A stretch of DNA of 64,000 bases from Bacillota bacterium. Lineage in GTDB: Bacteria; Bacillota_I; Bacilli_A; RF39; UBA660. This document shows, piece by piece, positions 2 through 53,302 of the stretch. The stretch covers positions 3,011 to 67,010 of the forward strand of contig SVAH01000007.1 of assembly GCA_015059485.1 (NCBI GenBank), given 5' to 3'. The notes under the pieces are model-generated. The model had not been told where the DNA came from. It saw only the letters and a list, made by a program, of their open reading frames with translations, and searched no databases. The number at the start of each line of letters is the position of its first letter. Positions within the stretch are counted from its first letter, which is position 1. Both the position numbers and the translations under genes were made by a program.

Positions 2-132
2 AGTAAAATGTGTTTTTGCTCCCCAGACTCGGATGCTGCACAAGCTGCAATTAAAGTAAGAAAGAATTAATAATTAACTTTACAATTTAAATTTAAAAGA
101 CTAAGTAAATCAACACAACTTAGTCTTTTTTT
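2..132 (+). repeat. Junction repeat family A, copy 1 (frame open to window edge)
   Basis: Coding remnant ...SPDSDAAQAAIKVRKN* ends at 70. Core ACAAGCTGCAATTAAAG at 40..56. Hairpin AGACTAAGT..ACTTAGTCT plus T-run at 98..132. Confidence 0.7.
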
Positions 133-2944: not shown

Positions 2945-4142
2945 AAAAGTATTTAAAACTATATTTTGTATATTATCATTATTTATAATAACAGGTATTG
3001 TTATTTATAATGTAAGTTCATATAAAAAAGAATATGAAAGTGTTAAAAGAACTTTAAAGATGGTAGAGGAAAGAAGTAAGAATGAACCAAGGGGATTTAA
3101 TAATTTTGTTCCAGAACCTAGAGAAAGAAATTTTGACAATATAATGATTATGGATTATGAAGTATATACAGTTAAACTTAGTAACAGCAAGATAGAAAAA
3201 ATAATTAGTCATAGTAATGATACAAGTGATTTTGATATTGAAAATATTGCAAAAATAATTATTGGTAAAAATAAAGGTATAAGCATTGGTAATCTTTATA
3301 GTAATAATTATTCATATAATTACACTGATAACACAGTTATAGTAATTAATACTAATAATATTAATAAAAAACTAACGCTTGTATTAATTGAATCATTTAT
3401 AGCATTAATTGGATTTGAGATTATAATTTATTATATTTCTAAAATGCTCACAAAAAGAATTACAAAGCCAGCAAATGAATCATTTTTAAAACAAAAAGAA
3501 TTTATTGCAGACGCATCACATGAACTTAAAACACCACTTGCAGTAATAATGGCATCATCAGATGAACTTAAAAGTGATAAAAAGAACGCCAAATATGTAG
3601 ATAATATTAAATATGAATCTGAAAGAATGAATACATTAATTAAAAGCTTACTCGATTTATCAAAATTAGAGAATGGAGTATCAATAAATAGTTATAAAGA
3701 TGAAAACATTTCTAAAATAATTGAGAGAGTTAGCTTAACATTTGAGGGAATAGCTTTTGAACAAGATATTAAAATTAAAACTAATATTGAAGATGACATA
3801 ATATTTAAATGCAGTAAAGAAGAAATAGAAAAACTAATATCTATCATACTTGATAATGCTATTAAACATAGTTACAAAAAATCTTCGGTAATTGTCAATG
3901 TGAATAAAGATAAAAATAATATCAATATTGAAATAATTAATTTTGGAGATCCAATTAAAAGTGGAGATGAAGAAAAAATATTTGAAAGATTTTATCGAGC
4001 AGATAAATCTAGAAATAGAGATGCTAACCGTTATGGATTAGGACTTGCTATAGCAAAGAATATAGTAATTAATCACAATGGAACAATAAGAGCAAATTCC
4101 AAAGATGGAAAAACAAGTTTTATAATAAATTTAAAAAAATAA
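2928..4142 (+). CDS. Sensor histidine kinase
   Basis: ATG at 2928 overlaps the RR stop. Two TM segments. H-box ADASHELKTPL, N-box LDNAIKHS, FERFYRAD, G-box GLGLAIAKNIV. Confidence 0.85.
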   Translation: MKELNRKVFKTIFCILSLFIITGIVIYNVSSYKKEYESVKRTLKMVEERSKNEPRGFNNFVPEPRERNFDNIMIMDYEVYTVKLSNSKIEKIISHSNDTSDFDIENIAKIIIGKNKGISIGNLYSNNYSYNYTDNTVIVINTNNINKKLTLVLIESFIALIGFEIIIYYISKMLTKRITKPANESFLKQKEFIADASHELKTPLAVIMASSDELKSDKKNAKYVDNIKYESERMNTLIKSLLDLSKLENGVSINSYKDENISKIIERVSLTFEGIAFEQDIKIKTNIEDDIIFKCSKEEIEKLISIILDNAIKHSYKKSSVIVNVNKDKNNINIEIINFGDPIKSGDEEKIFERFYRADKSRNRDANRYGLGLAIAKNIVINHNGTIRANSKDGKTSFIINLKK

Positions 4143-49764: not shown

Positions 49765-49921
49765 TTTAGTCACCTCATCTTTCGCTTTCCCTTAAAATTT
49801 TACTATAAAATGATTGTAAAGTCAAATAGTTTATGTCAAACGATTAAAAAAATTATAAACTCCACTTTACAAAGTACTTCGGGTAGGGTATAATAAGAAC
49901 AGAATAGAGGAGTGTCTTAAT

Positions 49922-51265
49922 ATGAAATTAGAAAGATTTAAAGTAAAACAAGATAGACCTAGTATAAAAATATTATTAATATCATTTTCTATTATCTTAT
50001 TATTTGTGTTTATATTTTTATTAAATAAATCACATGCACTATATAAAGTATCAGAATCACATGATGTAATAAAAGCAAGAGTAGGAAACTTTATATATAA
50101 TATAAATTATGATTTAGATGGAGGATCTCTACCAGATGGAGTAGAAAATCCATCAAGTTATTCAAGTGTAGAAGAAACAACTATAGCTAATCCAGTAAAA
50201 GAAGGATATACATTTAAAGGCTGGGAAGGTTTTAGTAGGAATTTATTTAATCCAGAAAATGCAGAAGAGGGTTTTATAGATGATGTAACAGGCAATCTTT
50301 TAAATCATGAAAATACTATATCAGCTAACAGTGGTTTTATAGAAATTAAATCTAGTGCACCATATACAATTCAGCCAAGATTGTCTTCTGGGAATTGGGG
50401 AGCATTTTATGATACAAATAAAACGTTTGTAAGTGGTTTTACATATTATGGAAGTTAAACTATAGTTTCACCAGCTAATGCTAAATATATAAGATTTACT
50501 ATAAGTTATTCTAATAGTAATCCAGATTGGAGTACAACAACTCAATTAGAAGAAGGAGATACTGCTACAGAATGGGAACCACATTTAAAAAAAGATATAA
50601 TAATACCTAAATTTACAAGAGGAGATATATCTTTAAAAGCTATATGGGAGCCAAATACATATACAGTAACATTTGATGCAAATGGAGGAACTGTAGATAC
50701 TGCAAGTAAAGAAGTTAAATATGGACAAGCTTATGATAATCTACCAACACCAGTAAGAGATGGATATACTTTTAAGGGATGGAATGGTAAGAATATGTTT
50801 AATGAAGAAGAAATATTAATGACTATTGAAGGAGCAACTAAAGAAAATGGGGATTATAAATTTAGTGTTGGCTCAGCTCATAGTAAATATTATAATGGTA
50901 TACCACAATTGTCTTTTAAAGAAAATACTTCGTATACGTTGAAGATAAATGGACATGTAGATGAGTTTTCAACTCCTGGAAGAAGACTTTTATTTGTTAT
51001 AAATTATTCAGATAATACTCATGATGATGTGGCTCTTAATTATACATCAGATATAGTTATTACCTATACAACACCAGCAAACAAAACTATTTCTAATATA
51101 ATAATGTCGTATGGTACAGGTTCAGGTGTTAATGCTTATATAAAAAAGGTTCAACTTGAAGAAGGAGATACTGCAACAGAATATGAACCATATTATATAA
51201 CAAATGATACAAAGGTAGTAAGACATGAAGATCATACTTTAAAAGCAATATGGGAAGAAGAATAA
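49922..51265 (+). pseudogene. Surface protein with two flg_new repeats and two LEEGDTATE(W/Y)EP modules, interrupted by one in-frame TAA
   Basis: ORFs 49922..50458 and 50795..51265 share a frame. No other stop lies between 50459 and 50794. The domain repeat spans the stop. Confidence 0.55.
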
Positions 51266-51286
51266 GGCTTAAATAAGCCTTTTTTA
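51264..51286 (+). terminator. Rho-independent terminator
   Basis: AAGGCTTAAATAAGCCTT followed by a T-run. Confidence 0.65.
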
Positions 51287-51327
51287 TGTTATAAAAGTTC
51301 TAGTTTTGGCTATATTTGTCGAAAGCA

Positions 51328-51355
51328 TTGAAAATAAAAAAAGAATCTCTATAAT
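51328..51355 (+). promoter_or_regulatory. Promoter of the candidate toxin mRNA
   Basis: TTGAAA, 16-nt spacer, TATAAT. Confidence 0.45.
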
Positions 51356-51457
51356 AGAGACTTTGAGAAGCGGAGTTTCTGATGTTTACCTCTCTAGTCA
51401 GGGCGAATTATTCAGGCGGTTTTGGTTTAATTGAGGACTGAAGGAGAGGAAGTAATT

Positions 51458-51538
51458 ATGAAGAAAGACACAAGAGAAACAGCACTTTATATTATAATTT
51501 TTATTTTATTGCTTATTATCATAAAGATTTTAGGTTAA
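51458..51538 (+). CDS. 26-aa hydrophobic peptide, candidate type I toxin
   Basis: SD GGAGAGGAAG. MKKDTRETALYIIIFILLLIIIKILG. Preceded by a ~95-nt 5' UTR. Confidence 0.4.
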   Translation: MKKDTRETALYIIIFILLLIIIKILG

Positions 51539-51540
51539 TA

Positions 51541-51626
51541 AAATAAAAGCATCTTATTCAAAGTGAATAAAGATGCAACCACCATAGTGGTAAGCATCTA
51601 GCCCGAAGGATATCTGCTTCTCACTT
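51541..51626 (-). ncRNA. Candidate antisense antitoxin RNA (convergent, overlapping the toxin 3' region)
   Basis: Minus-strand TTGTAA (51656..51661), 17-nt spacer, TATTAT (51633..51638). UUCG-capped imperfect stem. Terminator GCATCTT..AAGATGC + UUUUAUUUU. Confidence 0.3.
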
Positions 51627-51670
51627 AAATAAATAATAACATAGTTTAATATAAATTACAATCTGTAAAA

Positions 51671-51782
51671 TATTATAAAATCTCTTGACAATGTACTTCG
51701 GATGGGGGGTACAACAAGAACATAATCACATGATGTAATAAAAGCAAGAGTAGGAAACTTTATATATAATATAAATTATGAT
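51671..51782 (+). repeat. Partial duplicate of 49851..50113 with an internal ~150-bp deletion
   Basis: 51671..51723 matches the promoter region 49851..49903. 51724..51782 is near-identical to 50055..50113 (AATCACATGATGTAATAAAAGCAAGAGTAGGAAACTTTATATATAATATAAATTATGAT). Confidence 0.75.
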
Positions 51783-51814
51783 AATAAAGTAAAAAAACAT
51801 CTTCTGATGTTTTT

Positions 51815-53302
51815 TTATATTAAATCTAAAGTTTCTACTTCTTGTTGAGGTATTTCTTTAGCAAATTCAGTAGGTGTTTGAGGTATTGTACTTTCAATAG
51901 TTTTAGGTTGTTCTACTACAGATTGTGTAGTAGGTGTATTAATTATTGGCACGGTTGTAGCTATATTAGGTTGTATTGTAGGTTCTGTATTATTGGAAAC
52001 TGTCATAGTATTTTCAACTGGTGTAGAAGTTTCTAATATTTCATCACTAGGAGGAGTATCTTTACCCATAATAGCATCTTTAATATCTTGATCATCATCA
52101 CCAAAGTCTGAATCAACTTCAATAACTCTAAGTACTTCGTCAATAGAAGTTAAACCATTTAATACTTTATCAAGTCCATCTTGTAATAATGAAACAGTAT
52201 GTTCTTTTTTATATATTATTTCTCTTAATTTATCTTTTCTTAAATTACTTAATATTGCATCTCTAATTTCTTGATTAACTTGTAATACTTCTTGTATTGC
52301 AATTCTACCTTTATATCCTTTATAACATTCATCACAACCAACTGGTGCATATATTTCATCAACATCAAGTCCCATAGCTTTTTTAAATATCTTCTTTTCA
52401 TAATCAGTTGTAGCTCTTGATGTTCTACATTTAGGACAAAGTTTTTTAGTAAGTCTTTGTGATACGATACCAACTAGTGCAGAACCAAGTAAATATCTTT
52501 CAACGTCCATATCAAGTAAACGTTCAATAGTATTAAGAGAATTATTAGTATGTATTGTAGATAAAACTAAATGCCCAGTTATGGCTGCACGAATAGCAAT
52601 ACGAGCTGTTTCATCATCACGAATTTCACCAATCATTATTGTATCAGGGTCCTGACGAAGAATACTTCTAAGTGCAGTGGCAAATGTAAGTCCAATTTCT
52701 GATTGTGCTTGAACTTGATTAATACCTTCAATTTTCATTTCTACTGGATCTTCTACGGTAATAATGTTTCTTTCTTTAGTATTAAGTTTATCTAAAATAC
52801 CATATACAGTAGTAGATTTACCAGTACCAGTAGCACCAGTTACAAGGATTATCCCATTAGGGTTAGCTATAACTTTTTTTAATTTTTCTAAACTTACTTC
52901 TGAAAAGCCTAAAGTTTCAAGACCTTCCATGCTTTTAGCATAGTCTAAGATACGAATAACTACTTTTTCACCATAAACAGTTGGTAGAGTAGATACACGA
53001 AGATCTAAATTTCTATCTTCAATAGTTGTTTTAATAGCACCGTCTTGAGGAAGTCTTGATTCAGTAATATTCATACCTGCTAAGATTTTAATTTTTGTTA
53101 CAACATGATTTTTAATACCTAAAGGGAGCATAGTATAATCGACTAGCTCACCATCTATTCTAATTCTTATAATAACATTTTCTGCTCTAGGGTCACAGTG
53201 AATATCAGATGCACCTCTTTTTACGGCGTCAATAATGATTTCGTTAACAATATCAGCAACTGGCATGTTTTCATAATCAAAATCTCTTAGCATATGTATC
53301 AC
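51815..53302 (-). CDS. GspE/PilB-family secretion/pilus ATPase with Thr/Pro/Gln-rich C-terminal tail
   Basis: Walker A GATGTGKST, IMIGEIRD, His box GHLVLSTIHTN, CPKC..CDEC zinc site, and a ~95-aa low-complexity tail. Confidence 0.85.
   Translation of the reverse strand: MIHMLRDFDYENMPVADIVNEIIIDAVKRGASDIHCDPRAENVIIRIRIDGELVDYTMLPLGIKNHVVTKIKILAGMNITESRLPQDGAIKTTIEDRNLDLRVSTLPTVYGEKVVIRILDYAKSMEGLETLGFSEVSLEKLKKVIANPNGIILVTGATGTGKSTTVYGILDKLNTKERNIITVEDPVEMKIEGINQVQAQSEIGLTFATALRSILRQDPDTIMIGEIRDDETARIAIRAAITGHLVLSTIHTNNSLNTIERLLDMDVERYLLGSALVGIVSQRLTKKLCPKCRTSRATTDYEKKIFKKAMGLDVDEIYAPVGCDECYKGYKGRIAIQEVLQVNQEIRDAILSNLRKDKLREIIYKKEHTVSLLQDGLDKVLNGLTSIDEVLRVIEVDSDFGDDDQDIKDAIMGKDTPPSDEILETSTPVENTMTVSNNTEPTIQPNIATTVPIINTPTTQSVVEQPKTIESTIPQTPTEFAKEIPQQEVETLDLI

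Follow-up and report, generated by a model that had tools for sequence, protein, structure and literature searches.

The window analysed here is a 64,000-nt stretch of a Bacillota bacterium (GTDB lineage Bacteria; Bacillota_I; Bacilli_A; RF39; UBA660), namely positions 3,011 to 67,010 of the forward strand of contig SVAH01000007.1 in assembly GCA_015059485.1. The source is a metagenome-assembled genome (MAG) of 1.41 Mb in 35 contigs, with 25% GC and an estimated completeness of 74%. An adhesin-like gene (stop at 51265) and a gene for a PilB-like ATPase (minus strand, ending at 51815) are separated in this window by an intergenic gap of 549 bp (51266-51814), which holds the subject of the present study, a module of about 350 bp. 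It had been picked out from the sequence as a candidate type I toxin-antitoxin locus, i.e., a gene for a 26-aa hydrophobic peptide facing a convergent small RNA (sRNA). In the following, "window copy" denotes the copy of the module in this 64-kb stretch, whose features are:

51264-51281, plus strand: terminator of the upstream adhesin-like gene (terminator-like hairpin followed by a T-run), the left boundary of the module
51290-51327, plus strand: conserved block including the box TTTGTCGAAAG (51315-51325), kept in nearly all copies and in several species
51328-51355, plus strand: predicted promoter of the peptide mRNA, TTGAAA-16-TATAAT, with 11 of 12 matches to the consensus
51361-51626, plus strand: predicted mRNA of the peptide (putative toxin) at its minimum extent, taken as a 266-nt fold
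51364-51374, plus strand: 5' strand of fold-back helix H1, UGAGAAGCGGA, pairing with 51613-51623
51381-51390, plus strand: 5' strand of fold-back helix H2, GAUGUUUACC, pairing with 51589-51598
51389-51395, plus strand: anti-Shine-Dalgarno (anti-SD) segment CCUCUCU, about 55 nt upstream of the Shine-Dalgarno (SD) sequence and paired with it in the minimum free energy (MFE) structure
51443-51449, plus strand: SD sequence GGAGAGG, read from the sequence, with a predicted unpaired probability of ~0.2
51458-51538, plus strand: open reading frame (ORF) of the 26-aa peptide MKKDTRETALYIIIFILLLIIIKILG, a putative membrane toxin, from sequence and translation
51539-51576, minus strand: predicted sRNA terminator, from the fold, with its hairpin at 51549-51576 and its U-run at 51539-51548 (an A-run on the plus strand)
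51540-51626, minus strand: predicted antisense sRNA of about 87 nt, the putative antitoxin, fully complementary to the 3' untranslated region (UTR) of the mRNA including the 3' strands of H1 and H2
51589-51623, plus strand: 3' strands of H2 (51589-51598) and H1 (51613-51623) around a small variable hairpin (51599-51612)
51633-51661, minus strand: predicted sRNA promoter, with the -35 TTGTAA at 51661-51656, a 17-nt spacer and the extended -10 TGTTATTAT at 51641-51633, at a fixed distance from GUGAG

Every sequence feature listed in the original prediction was found in its place, with the start codon at most one base off: the near-consensus plus-strand promoter, the strong SD (8 nt before the ATG), the hydrophobic 26-aa ORF, the minus-strand promoter TTGTAA-17-TATTAT, to which a TG extension can now be added, the clean minus-strand terminator (the hairpin followed by UUUUAUUUU) and the complementarity of GAGAAGC (51365-51371) to GCTTCTC (51616-51622). 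The minus-strand hairpin, which is bulged, went unlisted by the terminator scan and is visible both in the RNA fold and in the alignment. Promoter-like matches in this AT-rich region numbered 10, against 12.1 expected in shuffles, and are thus not above chance. The promoter pattern of a single copy is not significant alone, and its significance comes from conservation across 79 copies.

A search of the genome for paralogous copies, which had been proposed as a check, returned 12 full-length copies with each of blastn, nhmmer and a covariance model, besides several promoter-only fragments; the covariance model of the sRNA (R2) found exactly these 12. The seven closest copies are 75-87% identical to the window copy (blastn), and the conserved block of other copies likewise starts directly past the terminator of the upstream gene. 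Several copies were present in each of the four other congeneric species searched (4/4), and a pattern derived from the conserved 3' region located 77 loci in ~15 other MAGs, carrying titles such as uncultured Bacilli (Hadza gut), Erysipelotrichaceae RUG14121 (rumen), Firmicutes bacterium CAG:582 and similar. Application of nhmmer to the pattern loci gave 84 matches, and pooling with the earlier copies yielded 79 distinct module sequences. The pattern scan also gave one chance match, in Desulfogranum.

Beyond the genus, blastn against a sample of ~150 genera of the same family, each represented by one genome, placed the module in this genus alone. Weak matches in other genera, obtained in the blastn search that covered the congeners, turned out to be AT-rich coding sequence lacking the module. 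The covariance model gave three weak matches in other genera, of which two are false positives and one is a real, diverged copy. This copy (L126; G167:C2:37661-37746 plus flank) comes from another genus of the family, encodes the peptide MENKIFVIQLLKYISIIIFLRIIYNIINQK and agrees with the others in its A-run and hairpin, its 3' motifs and its minus-strand promoter; its 5' part is lost at the contig end. No module was found in plasmid or phage collections (blastn) or in IMG/VR (pattern scan), and an association with mobile elements or prophages was dropped on these grounds. In addition, the module occurs in third party annotation (TPA) MAGs titled 'uncultured Muribaculaceae bacterium' (L045, L049, L060, L072, L075, L076, L081, L098, L100 and L119), titles that are probably wrong taxonomic labels.

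The peptide MKKDTRETALYIIIFILLLIIIKILG begins with the short charged stretch M-K-K-D and continues as a single hydrophobic helix. At least eight peptide subtypes can be told apart, including MKKDTRETALY..., MNKDTRLFLQ..., MSKKDFLIGLL..., MTKKDFLILGLF..., MNKNDYIISRLF..., MKKDNQIRLLY..., MFKKSFKQDVL... and MFKHQFKIELL..., and their common plan is one hydrophobic helix between a short charged N-terminus and a very short C-terminus, with lengths of 24-36 aa in the family. Conservation of the ORF in related loci, whose absence had been named as a refutation, was borne out: 71 of the 80 copies retain an unbroken ORF of at least 22 aa, and a few copies contain stop codons (pseudogenised). Over 144 pairs of equal-length ORFs, which are not mutually independent, the ratio of nonsynonymous to synonymous differences (pN/pS) was 0.31, and the differences at codon positions 1:2:3 stood at 603:225:723, the second position being depleted. 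At the level of sequence comparison, the pN/pS value together with the codon-position pattern indicates that selection keeps a hydrophobic peptide.

The mRNA of this peptide has a promoter of the form TTGNNN-15..18-TANNNT (simple regular expression) at the equivalent place in 61 of the 79 distinct copies. Its 266-nt fold has an MFE of -78.7 kcal/mol (z = -6.1), and none of 200 shuffles was as stable. The hok-like pairing of the 5' end with the 3' region, suggested at the outset from seven complementary bases, is backed by compensatory changes and proved to be longer than noted, comprising two helices and ~21 bp in total. H1 shows changes on both sides at 5 of its 11 pairs, with 90.9% of cells paired, and H2 has 88.4% of cells paired and 3 compensatory pairs. 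In the fold-back alignment (A1, 23 sequences), 87.5% of cells are paired, vs 38-44% when the 3' partner is slid. The same alignment has 18 of 40 pairs changed on both sides vs 12.4 in shuffles and a covariation score of 0.305 vs 0.182 in shuffles (0/500 as high), shuffle statistics that overstate independence because the copies are related; for this reason the slid-partner controls and the permutation at subtype level are the fairer measures. In the permutation, cognate 5':3' duplexes of this lock averaged -29.9 kcal/mol vs -25.1 kcal/mol for permuted partners, a value reached in none of 20000 permutations. RNAalifold recovered H1 unguided, and in a separate local run H2 also.

The co-varying anti-SD that occludes the SD is an extra feature, absent from the original prediction. 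The two segments vary in matched fashion among the copies, as CCUCUC/GAGAGG, CCUCC/GGAGG, CCGCC/GGCGG, CCACC/GGUGG, AAUCACUU/AAGUGAUU and GCUACCUU/AAGGUAGU, and for ten subtype representatives the cognate anti-SD:SD duplexes averaged -15.0 kcal/mol vs -10.1 kcal/mol when permuted, again with 0/20000 as low. The anti-SD and the 5' strand of H2 overlap in several subtypes, so that there the H2 pairing and the SD:anti-SD pairing may be mutually alternative.

On the minus strand, the anticipated RNA of ~85 nt complementary to the 3' region of the mRNA came out at a predicted 87 nt (51540-51626), and the convergent unit is conserved: across copies the predicted sRNA spans 80-100 nt and runs to a hairpin and U-run by the stop codon. 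The 87-nt RNA folds in prediction into a stem-loop and a terminator hairpin (MFE -25.9 kcal/mol, z = -3.1), and over 40 distinct sRNAs this structure has 89.6% of cells paired vs 36-52% when slid, with 9 compensatory pairs. The UUCG-capped stem noted earlier is indeed present in the predicted RNA of the window copy, but the UUCG loop is specific to some copies and not conserved. The terminator stem co-varies at 6 of 12 pairs; since a plus-strand T-run after this hairpin is found in 0 of the 79 copies, the hairpin terminates the minus strand only.

The predicted sRNA promoter lies 7 nt beyond the lock. A minus-strand extended -10 (TGnTATTAT, TGnTATATT, TGnTATAAT or TGnTAAAAT) stands at constant spacing from GUGAGAAGC in 78 of the 79 copies; 67 of the 79 have a TTG -35 at a distance of 16-18 nt upstream of this element. 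The -35 regions are not homologous between copies and are supplied by unrelated flanks; that a -35 is nevertheless kept argues for selection on promoter function. One copy (L062, CAKOXC010000002.1) has a G-rich spacer in this promoter, TTGACC-TTTGGGGGCGGGGTGTG-TTATTAT, which may be a slippage-prone tract in its putative antitoxin promoter.

Because the complementarity of the sRNA spans the 3' strands of the lock, the 5' end of the sRNA has the same sequence as the mRNA's 5' end. No second, non-overlapping complementarity of the sRNA to the translation start region was detected; the duplex energies were no better than those of shuffled sRNA (z ~0), and an Fst- or SprA1-like second trans interaction was rejected on this basis. 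Within the genome, the sRNA regions fall into three groups, with identities of 80-94% within and 60-77% between groups. The peptide subtypes MKKDTRETALY... and MNKDTRLFLQ... have one common 3' UTR/sRNA specificity group, which suggests that paralogous modules have exchanged their ORF and RNA parts by recombination.

Type I toxin-antitoxin loci have as a hallmark a primary transcript that cannot be translated, its SD being occluded by an anti-SD, and in some families a long-distance interaction links the 5' end with the 3' end (PMC6733600). Of the features of this class, the small hydrophobic, membrane-directed peptide of <60 aa is represented here by one of 26 aa, the antisense RNA gene complementary to the mRNA is present at the level of gene prediction, and the occluded ribosome-binding site (RBS) of the primary transcript is supported by covariation and by the modelled fold. 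The type I reading, as far as sequence can carry it, survived every test run, with a multicopy genus-wide family, a constrained ORF and a conserved convergent unit. We consider it likely, judging from the sequence, that the module in the window belongs to a family of chromosomal type I toxin-antitoxin-like modules that had not been catalogued before.

We envisage the following course of events. Transcription from a sigma-70-type promoter would yield the mRNA of the 26-aa peptide, at least 266 nt long, and this mRNA would be closed, with its SD paired to the upstream anti-SD and with its 5' end and the segment beside the anti-SD paired to two segments of the 3' UTR in the long-distance lock of ~21 bp. 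The convergent extended -10 promoter would yield the sRNA of ~87 nt, ending at its own one-way terminator past the stop codon. By analogy with known systems, the peptide, once made, would damage the membrane, and the sRNA would be the antitoxin that pairs with the 3' UTR and opens the lock. The resulting sRNA-mRNA duplex of ~87 bp might be a substrate of RNase III, so that the mRNA would be degraded while the anti-SD keeps the RBS closed; if the supply of sRNA fails, the more stable folded mRNA would persist and could be activated.

Several results weigh against this interpretation. Pfam and NCBIfam searches with seven peptide subtypes returned noise only, and no Pfam match, Fst and HOK_GEF included, appeared at E up to 10; no Rfam match was obtained at E up to 1 within 50000-53000, and at the gathering threshold over the whole window Rfam gave nothing at the locus. 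With no match to a toxin family or to Rfam, it is the architecture that has to carry the assignment. Furthermore, no plus-strand terminator lies inside the module, and none before 51793-51818, so that for the mRNA a minimum extent is given. Blocking the 3' UTR in partition-function folds produced no consistent change in SD accessibility (mean unpaired 0.24 vs 0.19); for this reason a translational switch on sRNA binding is not claimed, and the folding models do not account for an activation of translation.

Among other explanations, the peptide could be a small, non-toxic membrane protein, such as one that modulates a membrane complex; a structured leader together with a cis-antisense RNA would tune its synthesis, and it would serve neither addiction nor stress killing. 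The coding constraint and both transcription units fit this equally well, nothing in the sequence proves toxicity, and the module was not found on the plasmids or phages searched. Nevertheless, we regard it as unlikely, considering that twelve diverged paralogues occupy a genome of ~1.4-1.9 Mb, that their RNA partners have diversified into three specificity groups, that some copies are pseudogenised and that translation appears doubly blocked, by SD occlusion and by the 5'-3' lock; these four traits are typical of type I toxins (PMC6733600) and unusual for housekeeping small proteins.

Two further possibilities concern the neighbourhood of the module, where the following feature stands outside its right end:

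51685-51782, plus strand: decayed promoter with a poly-G spacer (TTGACA at 51685-51690, G6 at 51704-51709), then the scar of an adhesin gene (51721-51782)

The duplication scar beside the locus is confirmed: it is one half of a 62-nt direct repeat, 98% identical between 51721-51782 and 50052-50113, and is a fragment left next to the module that derives from the first part of the coding sequence of the adhesin-like gene at 49922. After 7 of the 11 other copies of this genome, within 10-25 nt, there is a TTGACA-(N9)-G7-10-TAAAAT promoter with a gene for a signal-anchored surface protein starting MYMK..., a family of at least 10 members in the genome. Such promoters are located at G000 C3:7455, C3:12157, C3:18362, C4:40971, C5:35978, C12:20802, C12:65383, C12:128001, C19:77 and C22:45916 (G000 being this genome), with spacers of 16, 18 or 19 nt that vary with how long the G-run is; in the two versions inside the window, 51685-51715 and 49858-49893, the G-runs are interrupted or shortened. 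A G10 run in a genome of 25% GC suggests phase variation by slippage at these promoters. Moreover, in five copies (G000 C12:20802, C12:65383, C12:128001, C4:40971 and C22:45916; not the window copy) the -35 of the sRNA promoter (TTGTCA, minus strand) and that of the poly-G promoter (TTGACA, plus strand) overlap in the near-palindrome CTTGACAAG. Given this joint use, the two divergent promoters probably cannot be occupied simultaneously, and they might interfere with each other. Across all genomes, such a promoter adjoins 14 of the 79 distinct copies and is not found downstream of the other 65, from which it follows that the module is autonomous.

This arrangement spontaneously gives rise to the thought of a strand-displacement switch coupled to phase variation. 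The 5' ends of the mRNA and the sRNA, both beginning GAGAAGCAG..., would compete for one docking site in the 3' UTR; the sRNA would open the lock and, where lock and anti-SD overlap, release the anti-SD to the SD, so that translation initiation would be controlled from ~150 nt away. The ON/OFF state of the slippage-prone poly-G promoter, by way of the CTTGACAAG overlap in 5 of the 12 copies, would then set the supply of antitoxin. If true, toxin activation would be tied to surface-antigen switching; as a joint claim on both parts, we hold it to be quite unlikely.

It is also conceivable that the plus-strand transcript is merely a leader, or upstream ORF, of the surface-protein gene behind the poly-G promoter, and that the module forms part of the regulation of that gene. 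Such a promoter and gene do follow 7 of the 12 copies within 10-25 nt, with a decayed one after the window copy, there is no plus-strand terminator between module and surface gene, and the -35 elements overlap in CTTGACAAG in five of those copies. This idea becomes very unlikely in view of the 65 of 79 distinct copies without such a promoter downstream, of surface genes found also without the module, and of the module's own promoters and sRNA terminator, with boundaries conserved whatever the neighbours.

The module might also be a dispersed repeat or miniature mobile element that codes for nothing, with GAGAAGCAG / CTGCTTCTC as terminal inverted repeats and the ORF incidental. This notion draws on the module's being dispersed, multicopy and ~350 bp long, with an inverted repeat, at intergenic sites beside unrelated housekeeping genes, and is highly improbable: it is rejected because of the coding constraint (an ORF open in 71 of 80 copies despite frequent stops at 25% GC, pN/pS 0.31) and the copy-specific compensation, the repeats changing together with a second helix and with SD/anti-SD, unlike transposase-binding ends, while the conserved block, which holds the promoter, runs ~75 nt outside the left repeat and no transposase gene is found among the flanking ORFs.

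Additionally, two elements at the borders of the module deserve mention. The box TTTGTCGAAAG in the conserved block is in some copies part of a 22-bp near-palindrome, CGTTCGCAAAATTTGTCGAACG. It recurs elsewhere in the genome (G000 C16:54474, C18:8240, C19:49421, C22:44065 and C22:45583), also upstream of unrelated genes, among them a ribosome-hibernation-factor-like gene and the gene for a large secreted protein. From its sequence and placement, the box may be the binding site of a regulator, the operator of a regulon that would include the putative toxin genes. On the other side, AAAAAAACATC-TTCT-GATGTTTTTTT (51793-51818) makes a symmetric hairpin between an A-run and a T-run, which is probably a bidirectional terminator for the PilB-like gene; a peptide mRNA reading through the module could end here at the earliest.

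Type I toxin-antitoxin modules are nearly invisible to annotation, their ORFs being shorter than 30 aa and without profiles, and most of those known come from cultured Proteobacteria and a few Firmicutes. The putative family described here comes from uncultured, small-genome, low-GC Bacilli of gut and rumen, with at least 12 modules per 1.4 Mb assembled, and its 79 natural variants supply enough compensatory changes to define the SD occlusion, the 5'-3' lock and the sRNA fold. It would present an unusual mix, in which a Gram-positive, 3'-convergent antisense RNA meets a lock of the hok/aapA type and has its target on the lock itself. Three diverged RNA specificity groups in one genome are candidate orthogonal RNA regulators. 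The neighbouring surface-protein genes may be phase-variable, and their proximity suggests that addiction-type modules and antigen switching could be linked.

With regard to known systems, an antisense RNA that overlaps the 3' end is the rule in Gram-positive families (PMC8594479), and SR4, the antisense RNA of bsrG, acts on mRNA decay and, via a structural change, on the SD helix (PMC3834814; PMC8594479). The likeness to txpA/ratA and bsrG/SR4 that had been drawn from the beginning stands as one between architectural analogues and not between homologues, there being no Pfam, NCBIfam or Rfam match. Like bsrG/SR4, bsrE/SR5, yonT/SR6 and txpA/ratA of Bacillus subtilis, the present module is a Gram-positive chromosomal one with a small hydrophobic peptide, a predicted convergent antisense RNA over the 3' end of the peptide mRNA, and an SD partly sequestered by an intramolecular helix. 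It differs from that group in having no peptide or RNA sequence similarity to it, a shorter peptide (24-36 aa) whose charged end is N-terminal, and an overlap that stops at the stop codon instead of entering the ORF. A co-varying 5'-3' lock whose 3' strands are the sRNA target also sets it apart, as do its location off prophages and its 12 copies per genome.

The par system of Enterococcus faecalis plasmid pAD1 (Fst; RNA I-RNA II), the other Gram-positive point of reference, has helices in RNA I that sequester the extreme 5' end and the SD, and its Fst peptide starts with MKD (PMC7472228). Convergent promoters, as in the Fst/Ldr systems, an antisense overlap limited to the 3' untranslated end, sequestration of the extreme 5' end and SD by intramolecular helices, and a charged start (MKKD here) followed by a transmembrane helix are all found again in our module. 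In contrast to Fst/Ldr, there is no Pro or Gly motif (PXXXG) in any peptide subtype, no charged C-terminal tail and no Pfam Fst match. The terminator here is one-way, whereas that of par is shared and bidirectional. The repeats at the two 5' ends are inverted here and direct in par, so that the 5' end of the sRNA is identical, not complementary, to that of the mRNA; and, unlike in par, a further interaction with the translation start region could not be detected (z ~0).

A long-distance 5'-3' lock combined with anti-SD occlusion is otherwise known from hok/sok of plasmid R1 and aapA/IsoA of Helicobacter pylori, and aapA modules, too, occur as a multicopy family in which the antisense RNAs are specific to their module (PMC6733600). 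Those systems are Gram-negative and without sequence homology to the present one, and their antisense RNA covers the 5' part of the mRNA and binds only after 3' trimming has removed the lock; here the complementarity of the sRNA covers the lock's 3' strands, so that 3' trimming would remove its target. As tested defining features speak against membership in each named family, the modules are filed as a new family in a known class. By analogy, their layout comes closest to bsrG/SR4, joined with a hok/aapA-like 5'-3' lock, and in having both 5' end and SD sequestered they resemble par RNA I.

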